The notes beneath the pieces were generated by a model, which saw only the letters and a program-made list of their open reading frames with translations, made no database searches and was not told the origin of the DNA. Made by a program: the position numbers and the translations under genes. Positions 30-44,190 of a stretch of DNA of 45,509 nucleotides are shown here, piece after piece (within the stretch, counting starts at the first letter, position 1; each line of letters begins with the position of its first letter). This DNA comes from Veterinaerplatzvirus T145P1. The stretch is taken from the sequence record OZ035793.1; one strand, given 5' to 3'.

Positions 30-536
30 ATGAGCAAAGCAGCATTAAAGATGGGTGAGGGAAATTTCAAGGCGCTCTACAACAAGAAGTATGGCGATAT
101 TGCTATGGTGGCAATTAACCGCAAGTACACGCCTGAGGAAGTTTTCGATTTCGCCGTTAGGTACTTCTCATGGGCTGAAAGTACTGCAATCAAGGCCGCT
201 GAGACAGCATCATTTCAGGGCATGGTCACTGAACACCTCATACATAAACCTCGAGTATTCACATTAACCGGGCTGGCGCTCTTCATGGGTGTTAATATCA
301 ATAGGTTCGCTCGCTGGCGTACTGAGGCTGGATACTCTGACGTGATGGAATTCATTGATAACGTAATCTACGAGCAGAAATACCAGCTTGGCGTCGCAGG
401 CATCATCAACTCCACCATCGTTGGTAAAGAGCTTGGCATTGATAAGCCGCAGGAGATTACCATTAGCAACAACTCCACAGCTAACGACGTTGACAGCATG
501 AAGGAAGCGCTGGAATCTGTTATTGGTAAACTATAA
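30..536 (+). CDS. terminase small subunit (putative)
   Basis: RBS aaggagg at 18-24; sits immediately upstream of the large terminase ORF; no diagnostic motif recognised, call is by position. Confidence 0.55.
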   Translation: MSKAALKMGEGNFKALYNKKYGDIAMVAINRKYTPEEVFDFAVRYFSWAESTAIKAAETASFQGMVTEHLIHKPRVFTLTGLALFMGVNINRFARWRTEAGYSDVMEFIDNVIYEQKYQLGVAGIINSTIVGKELGIDKPQEITISNNSTANDVDSMKEALESVIGKL

Positions 537-553
537 CAATAAGAGGGTATAAC

Positions 554-2119
554 ATGTCTTTAGTATGGGAAGAAATGACCATTCAGGAAAAGATGGCGGT
601 TAAGGCGATATCAGAACACAGCTTCGAGGGGTTTCTTCGCTGCTGGTTTTCAATAACGCAAGGCGAGCGATATATCCCTAACTGGCATCACAAATATCTA
701 TGCCGAATTATCGACGAGATTATTGCAGGTGAGCGCAAGGACACTATAATTAACATAGCGCCTGGTAGCGGGAAGACAGAGATCGCATCAATCCACTTCC
801 CGGCCTACTCGATGGTTAAGCTGAAGAAGGTGAGGAACCTTAACATCTCATTTGCTGACTCCCTGGTTAAGCGCAACTCTAAGCGCGTACGTGACCTTAT
901 CAAGTCTCAAGAATTTCAATCACTATGGCCTTGCAAGTTTGGCACATGCAAAGACGATGAACTTCAGGTTCTTGATGAGAGTGGCAGGGTTAGATTTGAG
1001 TCAATATCAAAGGCGGCTGGGGGTCAGATTACTGGTGCTCGAGGTGGTTATATAACAGAAACATATAGCGGAGCCGTTCTATTGGATGATTTTGACAAAC
1101 CCGCAGATATGCTTTCTCCGGTTTATCGAGCTAACAACCACGTAATGCTTAAGAACACAATTCGATCACGTCGCGCTAGCTCTGTAAAGGGAAAGGCAAC
1201 ACCAATTATCTCTATACAGCAGCGCCTGCACGTCAATGACTCAACCTGGTTCATGATGGAAGGCGGTATGGGCATCAAATTCGATTTAATTAAGATACCA
1301 GCGCTAGTTACCGATGATTACATCGATTCACTTCCTGACTGGATTAAAGATCAGTTTGCTGAGGACGTACTAAGCAGTGAATATATTGAGCGAGATGGAG
1401 TAAAGTACTACAGCTACTTTCCTAAAAAGGAATCCGTAAACGACCTGGTGGCAATGTGGGATAGTGACCCGTACACTTTCCTTAGCCAATATCAACAATG
1501 CCCAGTGGCTCTTGGCGGTAACCTGATTAACGTGGATTGGTTCCAGCGTCTTAGTGATACATTCAGGCCTCCAGCTAAGTACGATTACAGATTCATCACA
1601 TGCGATACTGCGATGACTACAAAGAGTTATAGTGACTTCTCCGTGCTTCAGTTATGGGGCTATAAGGATGCTAAGATTTACCTGATAGACCAGCGCAGGG
1701 GAAAATGGGAAGCACCAGAGTTGGAGGCTGAACTGCTGGACTTCGAGAAGAAATCAAGGGCAACCAGTCAGTCAGATGGTATCCTCAGAAAGATTATTAT
1801 CGAGAAGAAAGCGTCTGGTATCGGCCTGATTCAATCAGCTGGCAGGGTTATGCGAACACCGATAGAGCCATACGTACCGGATAACGACAAGCTTACTCGC
1901 GTAATGAGCGCATTGCCACAGATTAAGGCTGGTAATGTCGTTCTTCCAGAGTCTGCGCCGTGGCTAAACGGATTGCTTACTGAGGTTGCTGCTTTTACGG
2001 CAGATGATAGCCACAAACACGACGACCAGATTGACTGTCTAACTATGGCAATCAACCTGGTACTTAACATTGCGGACGACCCCAAAGCGCGACTAATGCG
2101 CATAGCGGGAATTAAATAG
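554..2119 (+). CDS. terminase large subunit
   Basis: 521 aa; P-loop-like IAPGSGKTE near N-terminus, acidic C-terminal nuclease-like half; canonical position before portal. Confidence 0.85.
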   Translation: MSLVWEEMTIQEKMAVKAISEHSFEGFLRCWFSITQGERYIPNWHHKYLCRIIDEIIAGERKDTIINIAPGSGKTEIASIHFPAYSMVKLKKVRNLNISFADSLVKRNSKRVRDLIKSQEFQSLWPCKFGTCKDDELQVLDESGRVRFESISKAAGGQITGARGGYITETYSGAVLLDDFDKPADMLSPVYRANNHVMLKNTIRSRRASSVKGKATPIISIQQRLHVNDSTWFMMEGGMGIKFDLIKIPALVTDDYIDSLPDWIKDQFAEDVLSSEYIERDGVKYYSYFPKKESVNDLVAMWDSDPYTFLSQYQQCPVALGGNLINVDWFQRLSDTFRPPAKYDYRFITCDTAMTTKSYSDFSVLQLWGYKDAKIYLIDQRRGKWEAPELEAELLDFEKKSRATSQSDGILRKIIIEKKASGIGLIQSAGRVMRTPIEPYVPDNDKLTRVMSALPQIKAGNVVLPESAPWLNGLLTEVAAFTADDSHKHDDQIDCLTMAINLVLNIADDPKARLMRIAGIK

Positions 2120-5673: not shown

Positions 5674-6618
5674 ATGGCCATTAAATTTGATGCAGAACAA
5701 GCAAAAATCACCGCTCACCTCGAGCAAATGGGCGTAGAGAAAGCAGATGCCGCTGGTATCTGGACTGTTAAGCAACTGACCGCCAATCTGGCACGAGCTT
5801 ACGAAAAAGAATATGCAGACAACTCCGTTGTTAATATCTTCCCTGTGACCAATGAAATCCCTGGTCATGCGAAATATTTCGAATATCCAGAATTTGACGG
5901 CGTTGGCATTGCTCAGATTATCGCCGATTACTCTGACGACTTGCCGCTGGTTGATGCGTTTATGACCGAGAAACAGGGTAAAGTGTTCCGCTTTGGTAAC
6001 GCGTTCCTGATCTCCACTGACGAAATCAAAGCAGGTGCGGCAACTGGTCAGCCACTGTCGGCTCGCAAACAGGCTCTGGCATTCGAAGCGCATGATAACC
6101 TGCTGGATAAACTGGTATGGTCAGGCTCTACACCGCACGGAATTCCTAGCGTGTTCAATCATCCGAACATCAACAACGTTGTTTCTGGTGGTGCGTGGAG
6201 CTCTGCAGCTGCCGCCATGACTGATATTACCGCACTTATTGATGCAATCGAGACTGCGACTAATGGCACTCACACCGCAACTGATATCTTGCTGCCTGCC
6301 TCCGCTCGCCGCCTGATGCAAGAACTGGTGCCGAATACATCTATCAGCTACGCCCAGCTGTTCGCTACCAATAACTCTGGTATCACTCTGCGTTATCTTC
6401 AGTTCCTGGATAACTACGACGGAGCAGGCGGTAAAGCAGCATTGGCGTTTGAAAAGAATCCTCTCAACCTTTCGATTGAGATCCCGGAAGCGACCAATGT
6501 ACTTCCCGGACAGCCTAAGGATTTGCACATCCGCTACCCTGTTACCTCCAAAGCAACAGGATTGATTTTATATCGCCCTCTGACGGTGGCCGTAATGAAA
6601 GGTATCACCTTCGCGTGA
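5674..6618 (+). CDS. major capsid protein (putative)
   Basis: 314 aa; own near-consensus sigma70 promoter (TTGCGT-16-TATAAT at 5608-5635) and terminator 6625-6646; size and position fit a major capsid protein. Confidence 0.55.
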   Translation: MAIKFDAEQAKITAHLEQMGVEKADAAGIWTVKQLTANLARAYEKEYADNSVVNIFPVTNEIPGHAKYFEYPEFDGVGIAQIIADYSDDLPLVDAFMTEKQGKVFRFGNAFLISTDEIKAGAATGQPLSARKQALAFEAHDNLLDKLVWSGSTPHGIPSVFNHPNINNVVSGGAWSSAAAAMTDITALIDAIETATNGTHTATDILLPASARRLMQELVPNTSISYAQLFATNNSGITLRYLQFLDNYDGAGGKAALAFEKNPLNLSIEIPEATNVLPGQPKDLHIRYPVTSKATGLILYRPLTVAVMKGITFA

Positions 6619-9288: not shown

Positions 9289-9293
9289 TTGCA

Positions 9294-9336
9294 TAGCACT
9301 TTTTGCTAAAGCGGTTATTCAACTTTGCTGTATAGT
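9294..9336 (+). promoter_or_regulatory. composite promoter element
   Basis: ATAGCACTTTTTGCTAAA, 22 bp, TATAGTTA, then CATCGAAACGA leader. Confidence 0.55.
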
Positions 9337-21451: not shown

Positions 21452-22413
21452 CTTTCAGGGTTTACACACGAGAGGAGCTAAGCAACGAGGATTACCACTC
21501 AGAGCAAGATCATATCTCCGGCAGCTCACTTGTCGAGATTATCCAAGGATCACCAGCTAAGTGGAAGTTCAAGCAACGCAATAGAGATAGCAAGGCGCTT
21601 AAGTTTGGTACCTTATCTCACTGCATGATTCTCGAACAAGATGTATTCGACAAGGAGTATTTGCGAGCAGTAGACCTTGACGCGATTGAAGGCTTAATTA
21701 CAAGCCAGGCAGGATTAGCAGCAGCACTTAAAAAAGTCGGTGTGGCTGGAACATCAGGGAAGGGCTATAGCGAGCTTGTAGAGATGATGTATCGTTCTGG
21801 CGAGGACTGGCCCATTAAGTGGCTAATTGATCAGCTGGAAAGCGCTCAAGCGCTTGTGGAGGGTAAGGAGCTAGTTAGCGCAGCAGACTATGACAAAGTT
21901 GTGGCTATGCGTGAGGTTCTTTGCAATATTCCGGCATACAATGCAATCGTGAATAGTGAGACGGCGCAGAAAGAGTTATCAATCTTCGGTGAGATTCTCG
22001 GCGTCGGCGTTAAGATTCGAATTGACCATGTTGATGTTGTTGATGGCGTCGTTCGGATCACGGATTATAAAACGACAGCCGACGCAAGCCCTGAAGGATT
22101 TGGTAAGTCTGCATTTAATCACGGATACCTTGCAAAAATGGCGCTTCAGCGCGATCTGTTTGTGAAAGCATTTAACGAGAAGCGCAAGGTTGTTGTAGGA
22201 TTGCTGGCGCAGGAGAAGGTGGAGCCATACCTACCAATGCTGTACACACTAACCGACGAACAGCTGCGAATTGGTCGCCTTCAGTATCTTGAGGCACTTG
22301 CAACTTACAAGAAGTGCAAGGAGCTTGATATTTGGCCTGGATATTCTAACGGCATTACAGAGCAAGAGCTATTGGTTCCTGATTGGGCCATTAAACAATA
22401 TAGAGAGATATAA
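21448..22413 (+). CDS. PD-(D/E)XK family exonuclease (recombination exonuclease)
   Basis: Motifs GTLSHCMILEQ ... IRIDHVD ... ITDYKT consistent with a PD-(D/E)XK nuclease; adjacent to Erf-like and SSB genes. Confidence 0.6.
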   Translation: MTFRVYTREELSNEDYHSEQDHISGSSLVEIIQGSPAKWKFKQRNRDSKALKFGTLSHCMILEQDVFDKEYLRAVDLDAIEGLITSQAGLAAALKKVGVAGTSGKGYSELVEMMYRSGEDWPIKWLIDQLESAQALVEGKELVSAADYDKVVAMREVLCNIPAYNAIVNSETAQKELSIFGEILGVGVKIRIDHVDVVDGVVRITDYKTTADASPEGFGKSAFNHGYLAKMALQRDLFVKAFNEKRKVVVGLLAQEKVEPYLPMLYTLTDEQLRIGRLQYLEALATYKKCKELDIWPGYSNGITEQELLVPDWAIKQYREI

Positions 22414-22414
22414 A

Positions 22415-22879
22415 ATGAACAAAGATTGCTGGCAGACTCCTTTAGACTTATTCAAACCGATAGATGATAAATACAAATTCAAGGTTGACGTGTGCGCAAG
22501 CCAAGAAAACGCGCTTTGTAAATATTACTGGACTGTAGATGATGACTGCTTGCAACAGGATTGGGGAGATGATGGTGGTTTCGTTTGGTGCAATCCACCA
22601 TATAGCAATCCATTACCATTTGTTGAAAAGTGCCAGCAATACGGCTATGCGGTCATGCTATTGAATCAGGATACGTCAACAAAATGGGCTAAGATAGTCT
22701 TTGAAAAAGCATCAAAGGTTATACTTTTATCAGACAGGGTTAGGTTTATAAATCCAGTAACAATGGAGGTTGGTAAGTCAAATCCTAAATGCCAGATGAT
22801 TGTAGTTTTCGACAGGCGTAGCAATTCTGGAGTTGATATACGTTGGTGTTCAATAAAAGAAATTCATAAGCAAATTTAA
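22415..22879 (+). CDS. DNA N6-adenine methyltransferase (phage Dam-like)
   Basis: Start trimmed to ATG 22415 (MNKDCWQTPLDLF); catalytic NPPY motif (WCNPPYSN). Confidence 0.85.
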   Translation: MNKDCWQTPLDLFKPIDDKYKFKVDVCASQENALCKYYWTVDDDCLQQDWGDDGGFVWCNPPYSNPLPFVEKCQQYGYAVMLLNQDTSTKWAKIVFEKASKVILLSDRVRFINPVTMEVGKSNPKCQMIVVFDRRSNSGVDIRWCSIKEIHKQI

Positions 22880-26705: not shown

Positions 26706-26725
26706 AATAGCACGAATTGCTAAAG
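26706..26725. promoter_or_regulatory. palindrome copy AATAGCACGAATTGCTAAAG without + strand -10
   Basis: Lies between the primase terminator and the tailspike start on the - strand; - strand TACAAT at 26729-26734. Confidence 0.4.
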
Positions 26726-27752: not shown

Positions 27753-28232
27753 TCAAATCGTGCTGTTTTGCTCTTTCTTCTTTTGGTTCTCTAATTTTAT
27801 CTTGCGCCATGAACGACACTCTGGCTTAGTGGCTAATTCAGCCTCAGTGACGACTCGCAGCATATGGCGCTTTTTGCACCGAAGTGTCAGCGGTTTCCCG
27901 TTGCCGTCGAATTGCAGGTCTGGTCGGCAGAATGTAGCGCGAAAACCTTCTCCATTTCGCTTATAGTAGTTGTGAGAAAGTTGAGCCCCACGCGCAGAAA
28001 TCATACCGCGCTTAAACCATTCTTCTACAGCCTGTGGTGTTACCTTTAACTGCTTTGCGATATTCGCCTTTGTGCCGAAGAAATCAAGAACTATCTCTAG
28101 CCGCGCGCGTAGCCCGGCTCTTACTTCATCTTTTAAAACATAGTAGCCTGAAGGTCGTTTACGTTGCTTTTTGTCTTCGGTGCGGATGGTTCCGTTATTG
28201 CCGTTAATTGTTCGCTTGTCGACTGTATTCAT
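27753..28232 (-). CDS. helix-turn-helix DNA-binding protein (candidate transcription regulator)
   Basis: Basic 159 aa protein with HTH-like segment KANIAKQLKVTPQAVEEWFKRG; first gene of the - strand operon, next to divergent promoters. Confidence 0.5.
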   Translation of the reverse strand: MNTVDKRTINGNNGTIRTEDKKQRKRPSGYYVLKDEVRAGLRARLEIVLDFFGTKANIAKQLKVTPQAVEEWFKRGMISARGAQLSHNYYKRNGEGFRATFCRPDLQFDGNGKPLTLRCKKRHMLRVVTEAELATKPECRSWRKIKLENQKKKEQNSTI

Positions 28233-30328: not shown

Positions 30329-30744
30329 AGATTACAGATAAAGAAGATTACATTGAGTTTTACCAGGGTCCGGTTAAGTCATGCCCTAAAGAGGATGACG
30401 AACAAATCTTTTGCTCTGATTGGGTTAAGTATAACTACCCAGATATGGTATTTTTCCATTGCGTGAATGAGGGAAAGAAAACCATTGGTCAAGCAAGAAA
30501 AGACCAGGCTAAGGGGCTTCTAAAAGGCGTATCAGACTGTATGTTTCTTATTCCTGAATCACTTCGAGGTAAGTATCCTTTCGGAGCTATAGAGCTAAAG
30601 AGGGCTGGCAAAACTCAAGCAAGTCCAGTCAGCGAAGAACAGAAAGCATTCCTGAAAAGTGTAATGGAATCAGGCGGTTTCTCGGCAGTCGCCTACGGAC
30701 GTGAGGGTTTTCTTGCAGCATTCAAAGAAATGATTTCAAAATAG
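30325..30744 (+). CDS. VRR-NUC domain nuclease (putative)
   Basis: Small basic protein with D...E.K-like segment (DCMFLIP ... IELKR); start overlaps helicase stop. Confidence 0.5.
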   Translation: MKITDKEDYIEFYQGPVKSCPKEDDEQIFCSDWVKYNYPDMVFFHCVNEGKKTIGQARKDQAKGLLKGVSDCMFLIPESLRGKYPFGAIELKRAGKTQASPVSEEQKAFLKSVMESGGFSAVAYGREGFLAAFKEMISK

Positions 30745-30784
30745 CACGAATTGCTAAAGACGATTTTAAAAGATGGGGTATAGT
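30740..30784 (+). promoter_or_regulatory. composite promoter element
   Basis: AATAGCACGAATTGCTAAAG (includes TAG stop), 22 bp, TATAGTTA, CCATCGAAACGA. Confidence 0.55.
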
Positions 30785-32760: not shown

Positions 32761-33891
32761 ATGGCAACTGCAAAAATTACCAACGAAGAACTACGCGAAG
32801 AACTGGCAAATGGCATGACAAACAAGGCAATAGCAGAGAAATACGGAATGAACATTCGCAACGTTGAATTGCGTCGTAGTAAATTGGCGAAACAAGGTGA
32901 AGGGCATGGTCGCGATGTAAGCAACCTAATCCCTCAAGGCTATGCAGTTAAAGGCGTGTCTAGCCTAATTGGTGCTGATGGCGAGATTAAGCAACAGTGG
33001 GTTAAGTCAGATATAGACAAGGAGAAGCAAGAAGAGATGATGCTTCAGGCAATTCAGGCCCTAACTGATGAGTTGCCTCGTGAGAAACCCAAAGCCTTAA
33101 GGGTTGGTTTGTTTGAGGACACTTTAAGCCTTTACCCCGTATTCGACCTTCACATTGGCGCAATGGCTCACCATGCTGAATGTGGCGAGAACTACAGCAC
33201 TGAAATCGCTGAGCGAATCCTTAATGATTACTTTGATTACGCGGTTGCAAAAGCACCTAACTCAAAGAAGGCCGTATTGCTGATTGGTGGTGACTTCCTT
33301 CACTCTGACGGAATGGAAGCGGTAACACCAACCAGTCGTCATGTTCTTGATCAAGATAGCCGTTATCACAAACTTGTTTACGTAGCAGTGCGAGCGACAC
33401 GTCGAGCAATTAGCCGTATGCTTGATAAGCACGCCGAGGTTGAGGTTCAGATTATTCCAGGTAACCACGATCTCTCAGGTATGATTTGGCTTCGTGCTGC
33501 AATGGCAGCTTTCTATATGGATGAGCCTCGAGTTAATGTTGATGCGTCCCCCGCTGCGCTTCACGTAACGCAATTTGGGAAGACGCTGCTTGGTTACTGC
33601 CATGGGCACGAACTCAAAAAGCCTGATACCCGACTATCAGCACTGGCTCGTGACCATCGCAAAGCATTTGGTGAATCAGAGTATGTTTACACCCATTCAG
33701 GCCACTATCACCATCAAACTATTACGGAAGGAAATCTGGGTATTGATGAATCACACGGCCAGCTTGGAGCGAAAGATGCGTACAGTGCTAACGGAGGTTA
33801 TCGCTCTTACCGACAGGCTTCGGTGATAATTTATAGTCCTGAGTTTGGTGAGATTGGACGATTTACTTGCCGCCCGGAAATGTTTAGTTAA
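32761..33891 (+). CDS. calcineurin-like metallophosphoesterase with N-terminal HTH-like region
   Basis: Motifs FDLH, GGDFLHSD, GNHD, GHE, HSGHYHH; N-terminal TNKAIAEKYGMNIRNVELRR resembles a DNA-binding HTH. Confidence 0.7.
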   Translation: MATAKITNEELREELANGMTNKAIAEKYGMNIRNVELRRSKLAKQGEGHGRDVSNLIPQGYAVKGVSSLIGADGEIKQQWVKSDIDKEKQEEMMLQAIQALTDELPREKPKALRVGLFEDTLSLYPVFDLHIGAMAHHAECGENYSTEIAERILNDYFDYAVAKAPNSKKAVLLIGGDFLHSDGMEAVTPTSRHVLDQDSRYHKLVYVAVRATRRAISRMLDKHAEVEVQIIPGNHDLSGMIWLRAAMAAFYMDEPRVNVDASPAALHVTQFGKTLLGYCHGHELKKPDTRLSALARDHRKAFGESEYVYTHSGHYHHQTITEGNLGIDESHGQLGAKDAYSANGGYRSYRQASVIIYSPEFGEIGRFTCRPEMFS

Positions 33892-35350: not shown

Positions 35351-35366
35351 TGGAGGCTATATTTTT
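35336..35366. terminator. bidirectional intrinsic terminator after lysis cassette
   Basis: A5-AGCCTCC-taat-GGAGGCT-ATATTTTT; contains the spanin stop codon. Confidence 0.65.
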
Positions 35367-35700
35367 AGCTAAATAACTCGTCGTCAGTCATTGTTCCTAT
35401 ATTCATCATCTCTTTTATGTACTTGCTTTGATACCCGTTAAGCGCCTCGAAGTTAAACTCAAATGGCCTCTTCAAGCTACCATTGCTAGCAAACTCACCG
35501 CACTTACCATCAATGTATCCCATGCTAAGCATCTTCGCGCAGAACTCCTTTGAAGCCGCGCTGCAAAACTCCCTATGCGATAATCCTGCCGCCTTACTGA
35601 ATCTCTGAGAGTCCTTATGCTGGTAGATGAATCGCGCCAAATGCTGTCGCGTGAAAAAGCTGTAAGATTCGCAGAACCGGTACAAGTCAAGGATGAACAT
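35365..35700 (-). CDS. hypothetical protein
   Basis: Last gene of - strand operon, followed by bidirectional terminator. Confidence 0.5.
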   Translation of the reverse strand: MFILDLYRFCESYSFFTRQHLARFIYQHKDSQRFSKAAGLSHREFCSAASKEFCAKMLSMGYIDGKCGEFASNGSLKRPFEFNFEALNGYQSKYIKEMMNIGTMTDDELFS

Positions 35701-35792: not shown

Positions 35793-37376
35793 TCACCCCA
35801 GCAATCTCGGATTAATGTAAACTTTATCACCAATCAGGCACGTATAGTTTTTCTCATCAAGCATTGGCAGTAAGTGATCTTTAATCTTCGTCATCACTCC
35901 AGCCTGAGCCTCGAACGGCTTAACCTTTCGCGCCGCTTCATACAATGAGCGAATGCCAACAACACCCTTACCGTTTTTACCCTGCTTGATCAGGATATCA
36001 ATCAGCTTATTCATCTCGGCATTGTCGCCAGCGTGACCAGCCGCGTTGGCAGATGACAAATAAGTCTTGCTAAGCTCCTGGAACATGATTACAGCTTCTT
36101 GCATGGTATCAAGCTCAATCTCTCTGGATTTCTGTGGACTCCCACCGCTAGGGTTGAACCAGTTGCGCACTGTGTGAAGAACAGCAGCAATCCTGATAGC
36201 CTGCTTATCGAATTTACCCAGCGCGCCGCGCAACATTGTGTGGGAATACTTACCGCCGTCCGCAAGGTGCGGCTCCATTTCCTGACGTGCCCGGTTTAGA
36301 TATTTCATCGCTGAGTTGCTAACCGTCAACTTTACTTCTTGCTCATTCATGATTTCGTGAACCAGGCGGAAGTAGTTAGCCTTAAGCTCACCATCAATTG
36401 GCTCGTAAGTTGAGTTGCCATTCTCATCGACGAATACACGCTCGCCAAGGAATGATTTTTCACGCACAAGTAGAAAACGTTCCGACACACCAATACCACG
36501 AGCACCAGCATTCATGATTGCGTTTATTGTCTCATCTTGCGCAATTACAGAGATGCATCCCATAGCGACGAAGCTCATGTTGTTTTCTGCGTTCGCACGC
36601 GCAATGGACACGTTACCAGCATCCCACGCCTTGAGTACGAGCTCGCTGTTCGTTTTCTTTGAGCCATCACCATAGGTCATACCTAGCAGAGAGTTCACGC
36701 TCGTTGCTTCATCAGAGATAACCGCGAAGTTGCCCTGGCGGTTGTTTATTCGCGCAAGACCTTCAGGCGTCGTATCTGATACTGGAAATACGATATCGCA
36801 CATCTTTTCCAGCTTCTCCTCTAAATCCTCTTTCTCCTCAAAGAGAGACGCCATCTCTGATGGTGACTTTTCCTGCTTCATCTCTTTGGATAATGCAGAC
36901 AGCTTTGCCATAATCTTTTTACGCTCACGCTTTCGCACTTCATTAAGCCGCTCAGTCTCAGCAATCATTGGCGCAATAGAAAGCGAGTTAATTGCTGATT
37001 TACCTGTGGATGGTGGCTGACTGGTTACTACGTATAGAGAGGTCGGTTGCTGGGTTCCGTGATACTCTACTGTAAAACGTCCCAGCATGGCGGCAGAAAT
37101 ACACCCCAGAAAGTGCATATAAGCTGAAGACTCTGGAAATTGAACAGAACGGGCAATATTGGCTGACAGCTTACCAACAACATCAATGTCATTACCGAGT
37201 GAGATTACGGGATACTTGTCATTAGCCGCATCAATCTCAACTGGCGCTTTCCAGAATGATTGAGACTGACGATATCCATTGGCATTAATAGCGACGCGCA
37301 GGGGTGGGAGGTTGTCTGCGGCAGCAATTGCCATAACCTGTTCAACAGATAGCTTATCTTCGTTGAAATCAAACAT
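35793..37376 (-). CDS. P-loop NTPase of unknown role (possibly replication-associated)
   Basis: Walker A QPPSTGKS and Walker B-like FAVISDEA; own promoter element 37407-37450. Confidence 0.5.
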   Translation of the reverse strand: MFDFNEDKLSVEQVMAIAAADNLPPLRVAINANGYRQSQSFWKAPVEIDAANDKYPVISLGNDIDVVGKLSANIARSVQFPESSAYMHFLGCISAAMLGRFTVEYHGTQQPTSLYVVTSQPPSTGKSAINSLSIAPMIAETERLNEVRKRERKKIMAKLSALSKEMKQEKSPSEMASLFEEKEDLEEKLEKMCDIVFPVSDTTPEGLARINNRQGNFAVISDEATSVNSLLGMTYGDGSKKTNSELVLKAWDAGNVSIARANAENNMSFVAMGCISVIAQDETINAIMNAGARGIGVSERFLLVREKSFLGERVFVDENGNSTYEPIDGELKANYFRLVHEIMNEQEVKLTVSNSAMKYLNRARQEMEPHLADGGKYSHTMLRGALGKFDKQAIRIAAVLHTVRNWFNPSGGSPQKSREIELDTMQEAVIMFQELSKTYLSSANAAGHAGDNAEMNKLIDILIKQGKNGKGVVGIRSLYEAARKVKPFEAQAGVMTKIKDHLLPMLDEKNYTCLIGDKVYINPRLLG

Positions 37377-39411: not shown

Positions 39412-39622
39412 TTTGTTACCTTTTGAGTTTTTTTATTATCGACATCTCTTCAACGTACTCGCTACAACTCGGGATTTTACTCCCGGCCCGGCATCCTAAC
39501 AAAAGGACCCGATCGGCGCTTTGGTGGGTGAGGTAACGCTTCCTCACATTGCGCGGTAGTATTTACTCCTTTTGGTCTCTTTCGAGAGTGACTCAGAGTC
39601 TGCTACCGTGTCGATGAGATTA

Positions 39623-39668
39623 AGTATACGCATAGTTAGCCACACTGTCTTTAGCAAAAAGTGCTATT
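39623..39668 (-). promoter_or_regulatory. composite promoter element (- strand, start of long leader)
   Basis: - strand AATAGCACTTTTTGCTAAAG, 23 bp, TATACT, then TCATCGACACGG. Confidence 0.45.
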
Positions 39669-39682
39669 CGTTAGATTTATGT

Positions 39683-39777
39683 ATTGTTGCAGATATTGCA
39701 ATGATTCACTTGATTATTGCACATACAGCAATATTGCTTCCGATGCAATGATGTTTTTGATTGTTGCGAAAAGTGAA
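39683..39777. repeat. nested direct repeats around a central dyad (candidate iteron/operator array)
   Basis: ATTGTTGC at both ends, TGCAATGAT twice inside, central perfect palindrome GCAATATTGC. Confidence 0.6.
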
Positions 39778-39952
39778 ATTAAGTGGTGAGTGAGTGAATG
39801 AAAGATGGATGGACTACCATACAAGTTGATTTTTACCAATCTATGGGAGCCTCACGGATATACGCGTATCCTCCGTATACTCAGTGTCGTCACAAAAGTT
39901 AGTGACCACTAACCTACGTTTTTACGCGATATATACACACGATATACAATAT

Positions 39953-40021
39953 AATATCTATATATATCAACCTTTTACTTTATTATTATTATTATTATTA
40001 TATATATGTATACTGTGTATA
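39953..40021. repeat. AT-rich long direct repeat copy B with (TTA)7 tract
   Basis: Same sequence as 20691-20750 except the microsatellite length and 3 substitutions. Confidence 0.85.
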
Positions 40022-40227
40022 CCGGTAATTGGTGAGATTATTGATATGTTCCGCGCAGATATTCTGACACCTGTCAGAAATGGATGGCATTGTAGGAATA
40101 AAAGGCACATATATAGGGAATGGCTTCAAAAATCTGTACACATCGGATACGGCACATTTACAACCAGCAATGGAGGGGCCTCTGGAGGTAAAAAGCGTAT
40201 CCATGATAAAATAGACGAAAATATACA

Positions 40228-40256
40228 TTGACCGACACGTAAATAGATGGCAATAT
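40228..40256 (+). promoter_or_regulatory. sigma70-like promoter TTGACC-17-CAATAT
   Basis: Canonical spacing; leader CACTGAAACGAAG; upstream of gene 40297. Confidence 0.5.
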
Positions 40257-40296
40257 AGCAGTCACTGAAACGAAGTAAAACAAACGAGGTATCAAC

Positions 40297-40845
40297 ATGC
40301 AGAAAGTAACACTAGGTGAAGTTATCCGTGAGATGGTGCGCAACGCGATGGTGTCCGAGAGTGGTGAGTTTAAAGTTCCGGTTAGCCAGATATTCAAACT
40401 GGTTCGAGGCAAGGAATACCCTGAAATGGTGTATGACGAAGAGACTAGTGAGATCCTCAACCTGGCAGATAGGGCGATGCCGGAACTAAAGAACTCATAC
40501 ATCTATAACACAGTGTCGAGAATGACAGAGCTTCGCGATGCTAATAAGCGAGCGAGATATAAGTTCATCTGGATTGATGATGACGGAGAGCAAACAAGGC
40601 CCGGTAGCTTCGACGGTGATGGCGCTGATAAATACCTGGTCATATACATTGAGAACGGCGCGCACTGGACTGGGAGTCGCGAAAAGAAAAAGCAGGAAGC
40701 GGAGAAAGAGGCGGCTATCATTGAAAAGTTCAAGTCTAGACTGCTCAAGCTGTCACCAAGTGTTGCTGGCTTGGAAGGTGAAGAACTTAAGGGCGCTGTT
40801 ACAATGATTAATGCTTATCAGGAAATGATTAAGGAGACTAAGTAG
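40297..40845 (+). CDS. hypothetical protein
   Basis: 182 aa; RBS gagg; upstream sigma70-like promoter TTGACC-17-CAATAT at 40228-40256. Confidence 0.55.
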   Translation: MQKVTLGEVIREMVRNAMVSESGEFKVPVSQIFKLVRGKEYPEMVYDEETSEILNLADRAMPELKNSYIYNTVSRMTELRDANKRARYKFIWIDDDGEQTRPGSFDGDGADKYLVIYIENGAHWTGSREKKKQEAEKEAAIIEKFKSRLLKLSPSVAGLEGEELKGAVTMINAYQEMIKETK

Positions 40846-42769: not shown

Positions 42770-42813
42770 ATAGCACGAATTGCTAAACCCGCTCCTGCGG
42801 GTTTTGTTATAGT
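42768..42813 (+). promoter_or_regulatory. composite promoter element with terminator-like hairpin in spacer
   Basis: AAATAGCACGAATTGCTAAA, spacer contains CCCGC-tcct-GCGGG-TTTT, then TATAGTTA. Confidence 0.55.
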
Positions 42814-42841
42814 TAGTTCACACCAATCGAGAGGTAAGAAA

Positions 42842-44020: not shown

Positions 44021-44150
44021 ATATGTTATCGCATGTGAACGACTGGTCTTTGATATGAAGACTTTTCACTGGTTCATAATTAAGGATTTAGTTAAGCCTT
44101 ATAAGAAAGGTGTTATGCCAGAGCAGTTTGTTAAGTCGTTCTACAAATAG
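44007..44150 (+). CDS. hypothetical small protein (47 aa)
   Basis: Not in ORF track; ends at the TAG that starts a promoter palindrome. Confidence 0.3.
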   Translation: MSFTEYVIACERLVFDMKTFHWFIIKDLVKPYKKGVMPEQFVKSFYK

Positions 44151-44190
44151 CACGAATTGATAAACCAGATCGCCACGGATGGCATATAAT
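44145..44190 (+). promoter_or_regulatory. composite promoter element
   Basis: AAATAGCACGAATTGATAAA, 22 bp with hairpin GCCA-cgga-TGGC, TATAAT. Confidence 0.55.

Follow-up and report, generated by a model that had tools for sequence, protein, structure and literature searches.

In the pac sites of P1 and SPP1 and in the cosB site of lambda, a short element is repeated several times and, with the help of IHF, directs the terminase to a cut nearby; IHF sites accompany both P1 pac and lambda cosB. We report here on an array of four dyads of the TTGC-N7-GCAA type in Veterinaerplatzvirus T145P1 (sequence record OZ035793.1; 45,509 nucleotides (nt), hereafter the window), a T1-like phage of the family Drexlerviridae, subfamily Braunvirinae, whose whole genome, opened at the small terminase gene, makes up the window. 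The array lies within the largest non-coding stretch of the genome (39412-40296), which is bordered on its left by leftward early genes continuing to the DUF3987 helicase (35793-37376), and on its right by rightward genes, the first of which encodes a DUF7174 protein (at 40297), the terminase following after about 5.7 kb. These dyads are conserved, they stand just to the left of the packaging starts of relatives, and they belong to a phage whose small terminase, TerS, resembles gp3 of P22. From these data, we lean towards the proposal that, within the pac site, the array serves in recognition or assembly.

Headful, pac-type packaging has been described for T1, TLS and Rtp, and terminal redundancy and permutation have been reported for T1, TLS, SU57 and MSK. 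The pac assignments published for the family relied on restriction mapping, PhageTerm or analogy with P22, and the authors of the SU57 study placed the pac site of T1-like phages in this untranslated region without identifying it. The full-text literature searched for the motif words and for T1 pac (a coverage that left out the T1 and Rtp genome papers) holds no description of the dyads, and the pac-site sequence of the Drexlerviridae appears never to have been defined before.

Anatomy and conservation of the dyad array

The four dyads (Table 1) have centre-to-centre spacings of 30, 17 and 30 bp and are symmetric about position 39732.5. Their extended half-sites read AT(T/C)(A/G)TTGC, which gives the extended dyad ATTRTTGC-N7-GCAATGAT. 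The half-sites are 11 bp apart, i.e., one helical turn, and the paired sites are 30 bp apart, i.e., roughly three turns, which brings them to nearly the same face of the helix. The right half of site 2 and the left half of site 3 together form the palindrome GCAATATTGC, the middle of which is the symmetry centre of the array. The same DNA can also be described as a duplicated two-dyad unit, with a 47-bp direct repeat (39697-39720 and 39744-39767) that is 79% identical.

A previous, sequence-only reading of the window had described this place as a symmetric nest of direct repeats, with ATTGTTGC bracketing TGCAATGAT, itself bracketing GCAATATTGC. All three elements are present, ATTGTTGC and TGCAATGAT occurring in two copies each in the 45.5-kb window, all of them here, and the palindrome occurring once, and some of the coordinates had to be corrected. 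The first copy of ATTGTTGC does begin at 39683 and the second one begins at 39760, not 39770; the second copy of TGCAATGAT does begin at 39744 and the first one begins at 39697, not 39696; and GCAATATTGC, which is indeed a perfect palindrome, occupies 39728-39737, not 39727-39736. The direct repeats themselves do not form a symmetric nest, their centres being located at -46/+31 and -31.5/+15.5 around the palindrome; the symmetry exists at the level of the four dyads.

Regarding chance, three perfect TTGC-N7-GCAA dyads occur within 62 bp, versus 1.58 expected in the whole window, and the array is the only place in the window where at least two repeated 8-mer families and a 10-bp palindrome are found in 100 bp. 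A cluster of three for any 4-mer dyad was obtained in 8 of 200 shuffles (p ~0.04 from composition alone). Judged by composition, the array is mildly convincing as a non-chance feature; in our view, it is the conservation that settles the question.

The region is 99.7-100% identical to the T145P1 records and 80-95% identical to that of more than 100 T1-like coliphages, and the comparison with the homologous regions of related phages, which the earlier reading had recommended, provided the following lines of evidence. First, the four dyads occur at identical offsets from the neighbouring promoter element in 12 GenBank relatives. Second, 15 distinct sequences (from Braunvirinae, Rogunavirinae and Nouzillyvirus) have no indel across the array and have indels immediately downstream of it. 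Third, in these 15 sequences the half-site columns are 96.2% conserved (26 of the 32 being invariant), versus 78.3% for the N7 spacers and 78.1% for the linkers; the difference between the half-sites and the rest has a permutation p of 2e-5, and the mask-shift test reaches its maximum at offset 0. Fourth, site 4 is a full TTGC-N7-GCAA in most relatives, including MSK, Rtp, Sd1, phiEB49 and Jk06, with at least five different spacers.

No codon periodicity was found at the array (variable columns 20/22/20 over the three phases), and the local open reading frame (ORF) contains stops in several relatives. The folding of both array strands as single strands gave z-scores of -1.1 and -0.7, i.e., no hairpin, cruciform or RNA signal, and the Rfam scan of the window returned tRNA only, with nothing at the array. 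Since the half-sites are conserved over variable spacers, with a fixed spacing, in DNA that is non-coding and gives no single-strand-structure signal, we agree with the earlier reading that this is a protein-binding array, and we predict that it consists of double-stranded DNA sites read by a 2-fold symmetric protein. The small coding sequences annotated as "hypothetical" or "membrane" across the array (456-614, 533-655 and 534-629 of the sequences designated L013, L015 and L016, respectively) are probably spurious, as judged from the pattern of substitutions and from stops that interrupt the frame in relatives.

A single further exact TTGC-N7-GCAA exists in the genome, at 100-114 inside terS (TTGCTATGGTGGCAA); it is isolated, encodes residues that are not conserved in relatives, and is probably due to chance. 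The dyad cluster is unique to its region of the genome, as expected of a pac site. A scan of IMG/VR with the extended dyad returned 74 matches, mostly at chance level; the pattern was found again, on the plus strand of the locus, in 37 loci, 14 of which have at least two perfect dyads nearby, and ten of these 14 are Drexlerviridae-like (the other four are L249, L276, L279 and L287).

Packaging ends of relatives and the proposed pac site

Many GenBank records of relatives begin or end in or just beside the array, and the cut positions given here for T145P1 were transferred by homology from the ends of relatives. In MSK, the forward-strand start found by PhageTerm is at 36,862, with peaks within 20 bases; it falls between GATGGATGGACTA and CC in the MSK sequence and its equivalent in the window is ~39817. 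The record of UDF157lw was re-opened according to PhageTerm and its start corresponds to ~39810, and the end of SU57, of the same genus as T145P1, was chosen from both PhageTerm and an abrupt change in coverage and corresponds to 39836. The read-derived starts of these three relatives correspond to 39810-39836, just to the right of the array. The record ends of Rao1 and CEB_EC3a, of uncertain derivation, correspond to ~39808 and ~39852, respectively. Because the ends of relatives map there, we propose that the headful series starts 30-75 bp to the right of site 4 and that packaging proceeds rightward.

T1 and TLS can be compared with these phages. Base 1 of the T1 record, which has a repeat region annotated over 1-2800, falls within a homologous dyad, between GATT and GTTGCATGGTGTGCAAC...GATTGTTGCTTAGAATGCAATGAT, and a second dyad is present 31 bp further on. 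For TLS, the authors located the pac end by restriction mapping and settled its position from a similarity to the P22 pac site; once the record ends are joined, this point is found at the equivalent place, ~110 bp rightward of the dyad pair of TLS itself (AGACC-N4-GGTCT). Two other record boundaries look like conventions and not mapped ends, namely that of Rtp (NC_007603), which starts at the junction between A and GCAATATTGC, and that of Rogue1 (JQ182736), which ends after GCAAT, exactly at the SspI cut (AAT/ATT) of the central palindrome.

TerS of T145P1 is 30% identical to gp3 of P22-like phages, and because it is a P22 gp3 homologue we regard T145P1 as a pac-type headful phage, a membership that fits its terminase as a whole (gp3-family TerS and Drexlerviridae-type TerL). 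A TerS of the gp3 type is encoded in roughly 1000 genomes of the Drexlerviridae. In the pathway that we propose, the four dyads, to the left of the cut and so outside the DNA of the first headful, would be bound by a 2-fold symmetric protein, either the P22-gp3-type small terminase, which is the default candidate, or an accessory factor. The resulting nucleoprotein complex would place TerL, the presumed nuclease for the pac cut, on the adjoining purine-rich tract, and TerL would make the initial cut there, with some imprecision, at ~39809-39852, 30-75 bp rightward of the dyads. Headful packaging would then proceed rightward, toward the terminase and structural genes. We infer that the packaging machinery recognises the array, with TerS as the binder.

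As a step towards the identification of the family-wide plan of the region, we compared IMG/VR loci anchored on the helicase or on TerL (by a TerL alignment and the TLS TerL as the query) and the whole records of T1, TLS and Ec_L1. The order common to them is a leftward promoter element, a slot with short repeats, a purine-rich tract, an AT-rich block and rightward genes. One to three TTGC-N7-GCAA dyads, 24-31 bp apart, occur in the T1-likes, Ec_L1, L158, L161 and L162/L178. In the T1-likes, Ec_L1, L158, L161 and L162, the dyads always adjoin the purine-rich tract, and their distance to the promoter element varies (75-85 bp or more in the T1-likes; at least 75 bp in L158 and L162). In all the lineages examined, TLS (GTGAGTGAGTAG) among them, the repeats are followed by a comparable G/A-rich tract. 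It is mainly because the dyads are coupled to the cut side, and not to the promoter, that we prefer a role in packaging over promoter control.

The TLS-like and L037-like (TATTCC-type) loci have no TTGC dyads, and their slot is occupied by other repeats. Depending on the lineage (L037, L042, L044, L048, L049, L052, L054, L055, and TLS (L213), 49780-49902 joined to 1-80), these are TATTCC twice with GGAATA twice, AGACC-N4-GGTCT twice, or GTAATC four times, and GATC clusters often follow them. T1 carries both the TATTCC/GGAATA repeats and two TTGC dyads. The AGACC pair can be present or absent between near-identical phages, in which TerS, the helix-turn-helix (HTH) regulator and the winged-helix protein stay 95-100% identical. 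GATC is 2.6-fold depleted in the window (62 sites versus 162 expected), and the pac region has none; in T1 and TLS, with 235 and 281 sites, respectively, GATC is as frequent as expected or more so, and two to three GATC are clustered just to the left of their pac ends. The only Dam-like gene of the window (within ORF 22271-22879) encodes a protein just 29% identical to the Dam of T1 and TLS.

Several points weigh against the pac-site proposal. First, all the cut positions come from relatives and none from T145P1, two of the five are of uncertain derivation, and so is the choice of base 1 in T1. Second, TerS is 45-57% identical across lineages with or without dyads and does not cluster by dyad presence; the TLS-like and L037-like loci combine a ~50%-identical TerS with slot repeats other than the TTGC dyads; and L055, where the AGACC dyads are missing, has a TerS 100% identical to that of TLS and L042, where they are present, so that TerS might do without the slot repeats. 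Third, the dyad symmetry would be more in keeping with a dimer than with DNA wound around a ring-shaped TerS oligomer, where direct repeats would be expected, and this is a real weakness of the TerS version. Fourth, the purine-rich tract, which is common to all lineages, could be the real terminase target, the dyads having another role.

Two other phage proteins were considered as binders and are disfavoured. All lineages have, immediately before the primase gene, a gene for a Cro-like HTH protein (27753-28232 in T145P1). The residues of its recognition helix vary from one dyad-bearing phage to another (PQAVEEW for the window, NQTVQGW for T1, HATLYEW for Ec_L1), and phages with unlike slot motifs have almost identical helices; the helix does not track the dyads, which speaks against this protein being the binder. 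The 111-amino-acid protein encoded directly downstream of the DUF3987 helicase (35365-35700, minus strand) has no match in Pfam, its TLS homologue is annotated as an HTH protein, and its structural model is a winged helix (predicted local distance difference test, pLDDT, 84). Its SKEF motif hardly varies within the family, and its C-terminus is a conserved acidic-aromatic sequence, DDELF, that resembles the interaction tails of the SSB type; its presumed recognition helix with SKEF is equally kept in the TLS-like phages, which are devoid of dyads. The phyletic profile, i.e., the genes present in dyad-bearing genomes and absent from TLS, yielded nothing beyond shadow ORFs and a few small ORFs without a consistent distribution.

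Tentatively, and with clearly less confidence than for the pac-site proposal itself, we suggest that the pac sites of the Drexlerviridae could be modular. A conserved cut region, the purine-rich tract, would be combined with a slot for lineage-specific repeats (TTGC-N7-GCAA in T145P1, T1 and Ec_L1; TATTCC/GGAATA in T1 and the L037 type; AGACC-N4-GGTCT in TLS; GTAATC in another lineage), which would be read by a 2-fold symmetric factor other than the TerS ring, a small phage or host protein licensing or timing the initiation of packaging. If this is true, the TTGC dyad would also explain the packaging start of T1 on foreign DNA, such as the P-Q region of lambda. Drexler is said to have reported, in 1984, that T1 starts the packaging of lambda DNA between genes P and Q. 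In ninG, between these two genes, the lambda sequence ATGCGTGGTGTGCAAC (NC_001416, 42839-42854; L227, 4840-4855) matches T1 dyad 1, TTGCATGGTGTGCAAC, at 14 of 16 positions, spacer included, for ~0.02 such matches expected in lambda by our own estimate, and GCAAT words are found just upstream of it. The single perfect TTGC-N7-GCAA of lambda is at 6051. The match at 42839 is post hoc, and a second 14/16 match, devoid of the right half-site, exists at 33458, both of which count against its use in favour of the pac-site proposal; it is a lead, not evidence.

T1 is a classical phage and a generalised transducer, and the Drexlerviridae are both common contaminants of laboratories and industry and candidates for therapy. 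A delimited, family-wide array beside mapped ends is a concrete and mutable candidate recognition sequence, through which one can test how a P22-gp3-type terminase finds a start site kilobases away from its own gene, and why T1 packages some foreign DNA efficiently, and attempt the building of packageable plasmids or non-transducing phage variants. Should the binder not be TerS, it would be a new accessory component of headful initiation.

Table 1. Features of the T145P1 window discussed in the text (positions in the window; strand given where it applies).
Feature	Position	Strand	Remarks
Dyad site 1, TTGCAGATATTGCAA	39687-39701		extended form ATTGTTGC-N7-GCAATGAT (39683-39705); same offset in all relatives, variable spacer
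Dyad site 2, TTGCACATACAGCAA	39717-39731		extended form 39713-39735
Dyad site 3, TTGCTTCCGATGCAA	39734-39748		extended form 39730-39752
Dyad site 4, TTGCGAAAAGTGAAA	39764-39778		right half degenerate (GAAA); dyad type most widely kept across the family
Purine-rich tract, GTGGTGAGTGAGTGAATGAAAGATGG	39783-39808	+	directly after the last dyad; GC skew +0.38 to +0.50
Predicted region of the initial packaging cut, where the headful series would begin	39809-39852	+	from homology to the ends of relatives; packaging rightward
AT-rich block	39920-40020		GC 17-20% (also over the span up to 40040), (TTA)n run, IHF consensus TATCAACCTTTTA at 39965-39977; kept in relatives
Leftward early promoter	39623-39667	-	upstream dyad element ATAGCACTTTTTGCTAA (39667-39651), -10 box TATACT (39628-39623)
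TerS, small terminase, P22 gp3 family	30-536	+	Pfam GP3_package 9.3e-13; PHROG 606; PDB 3P9A (P22 gp3) E=3e-16
TerL, large terminase	554-2119	+	56-59% identical to TerL of T1 and Ec_L1; so annotated in relatives

Alternative roles of the array and its neighbourhood

Besides its proposed role in packaging, the array could serve a phage regulator that binds the dyads upstream of the leftward early promoter to activate it or shut it off, which is the operator function envisaged by the sequence-only reading and which we judge unlikely. The minus-strand early promoter that this reading had placed beside the array is real, being one of the 21 copies of a phage promoter type. Site 1 begins 16 bp past the upstream element of this promoter, the geometry of the dyads is typical of dimeric HTH regulators, and the dyad formed by the promoter element, TAGCA-N5-TGCTA, differs from TTGCA-N5-TGCAA by a single base in each half-site. 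However, the dyad centres are ~78-155 bp upstream of the transcription start, outside the promoter core and with no overlap with the -35 or -10 boxes, there is no promoter-like site inside the array, and such sites are missing at the 20 other promoters of the class. Furthermore, the dyads of the T1-likes, L158 and L162 stand as far from the promoter element as described above, yet always beside the purine-rich tract, and the Cro-like HTH protein does not co-vary with the dyad motif.

The promoter class deserves a description of its own. Its element, ATAGCACnnnTTGnTAA, occurs 21 times in the window versus 1.7 expected (for example at 2116-2132, 9293-9309, 26707-26723, 30741-30757, 39651-39667 (minus strand), 42770-42786 and 44147-44163). 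Most copies are co-oriented with nearby genes; most have a TATAGT-like -10 box ~23 nt downstream, after which a leader, CATCGAAACGA, is conserved in many. The class has a weak -35 box, and its TAGCA-N5-TGCTA dyad is centred near -44; the class looks like an activator-dependent phage promoter. It corresponds to the "21-nt intergenic repeat" the function of which is listed as an open question in the 2024 TLS paper. Between the early promoter and the first leftward ORF, a GC-rich segment of ~190 nt (39420-39600; up to 61% GC) contains only two short ORFs, of 37 and 43 amino acids; it is common to the vB_Ec-G8 and T145P1 records and absent from most relatives, where the first gene comes right after the promoter.

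A replication origin, in which the dyads would be initiator sites (the iterons of the earlier reading), the AT-rich block 140 bp to the right the unwinding element, and the Cro-like HTH or the winged-helix protein the binder, is similarly improbable. Multiple phased sites are indeed present in the largest intergenic region, where transcription diverges, near an AT-rich block with an IHF consensus; the phage encodes a primase, the DUF3987 helicase, an HTH protein beside the primase and the winged-helix protein with the DDELF tail beside the helicase; and the literature on T1-like phages reports no known origin. Yet the recognition helix of the Cro-like protein differs between phages sharing the same dyads and the SKEF motif of the winged-helix protein persists in the dyad-less TLS-like phages, no DnaA box (TTWTNCACA) occurs in 39412-40296, and the packaging cut zone falls between the dyads and the AT-rich block. 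The GC skew follows gene strand only and is uninformative on an origin.

The IHF consensus of the AT-rich block is one of four matches genome-wide, for 0.08 expected in the intergenic region, and is positioned 130-155 bp to the right of the proposed cut zone, which counts in favour of the pac-site proposal. Its core, TATATCAACC, recurs in JulesPiccard, MSK and SU57, Rtp having a variant, and the full consensus is kept in SU57. The same intergenic region contains the perfect inverted repeats TTCTGACA-CC-TGTCAGAA (40062-40079) and GTTAGTG-AC-CACTAAC (39898-39913), the position of the first one reading CCTACA..TGTAGGAA in relatives, as well as the conserved ATACGCGT (39859-39868), ~30-50 bp to the right of the proposed cut zone.

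Even more doubtful is a role as sites for a host protein, for example CytR or PurR of the LacI family, or a nucleoid protein, acting in bending or timing. LacI-family factors such as CytR and PurR recognise half-sites of the TTGCA/TGCAA type, which TTGCA-N5-TGCAA resembles, and phage lineages with candidate binders diverged to 45-60% identity still share one constant half-site. On the other hand, there are no CRP sites beside the dyads, the TLS-like coliphages have no dyads in spite of sharing the same host, and Ec_L1, which infects Enterobacter, has them. Lastly, that the array is a functionless remnant of a 47-bp tandem duplication, conserved through close kinship only, is very improbable: it can be read as a duplicated unit, as seen above, but such a reading is contradicted by a conservation in register with the half-sites that spans subfamilies, and by the persistence of the dyads in T1, Ec_L1, L158 and L162, where the flanks no longer align.

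Comparison with known systems

Similarly to the iteron origins of lambda (ori) and P4 (ori/crr), T145P1 has four phased repeats near an AT-rich block. However, iterons are usually direct repeats with a dedicated initiator encoded nearby, none of which could be tied to the T145P1 dyads, and here the packaging cut would fall between the dyads and the AT-rich block.

The pac site of P22 is served by a TerS of the same family and its first cut is likewise imprecise over tens of bp, but it is a single asymmetric 22-bp sequence inside gene 3, whereas the T145P1 region is made of dyads ~5.7 kb upstream of terS. The comparison with the 22-bp P22 pac (GAAGATTTATCTGAAGTCGTTA) located its core, AGATTTAT, at 39673-39680, ~130 bp from the cut zone, with GATTTAyG conserved; this resemblance is not significant, AGATTTAT having four copies versus 2.15 expected, and the array probably falls outside the P22-type class of pac sequences in spite of the shared TerS family.

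The cosB site of lambda has, like the T145P1 array, several short sites with inverted symmetry. As would be the case in T145P1, these stand beside the nicking site and are aided by IHF; in lambda, they are bound by the dimeric DNA-binding domains of gpNu1. Lambda differs in being a cos phage, whose staggered nick is precise, and in that gpNu1 is a winged-HTH TerS unrelated to gp3.

In P1, short recognition elements are repeated over ~100-160 bp at the first headful cut, with an IHF site in the region, and the GATC clusters beside the repeats of T1 and TLS recall the Dam-sensitive P1 hexamers. P1 differs in its seven TGATCA/G hexamers, which occur to either side of the cut, and in its unrelated pacase, PacA/PacB; the four 15-bp dyads of T145P1 all stand on one side of the cut, and their array is free of GATC.

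In SPP1 (pacL-pacC-pacR), repeated boxes on the non-encapsidated side (pacL, bound by TerS) stand beside the cut (pacC), and packaging is one-directional, an arrangement like the one we propose for T145P1. The boxes of SPP1 differ in being direct repeats, in bent DNA to which the ring of G1P, of another TerS family, binds, and a second set, pacR, is present on the packaged side, where T145P1 has no set of the same motif. Together, these comparisons suggest that, in its way of working, the array would be closest to lambda cosB and to the multi-repeat pac sites of P1 and SPP1.

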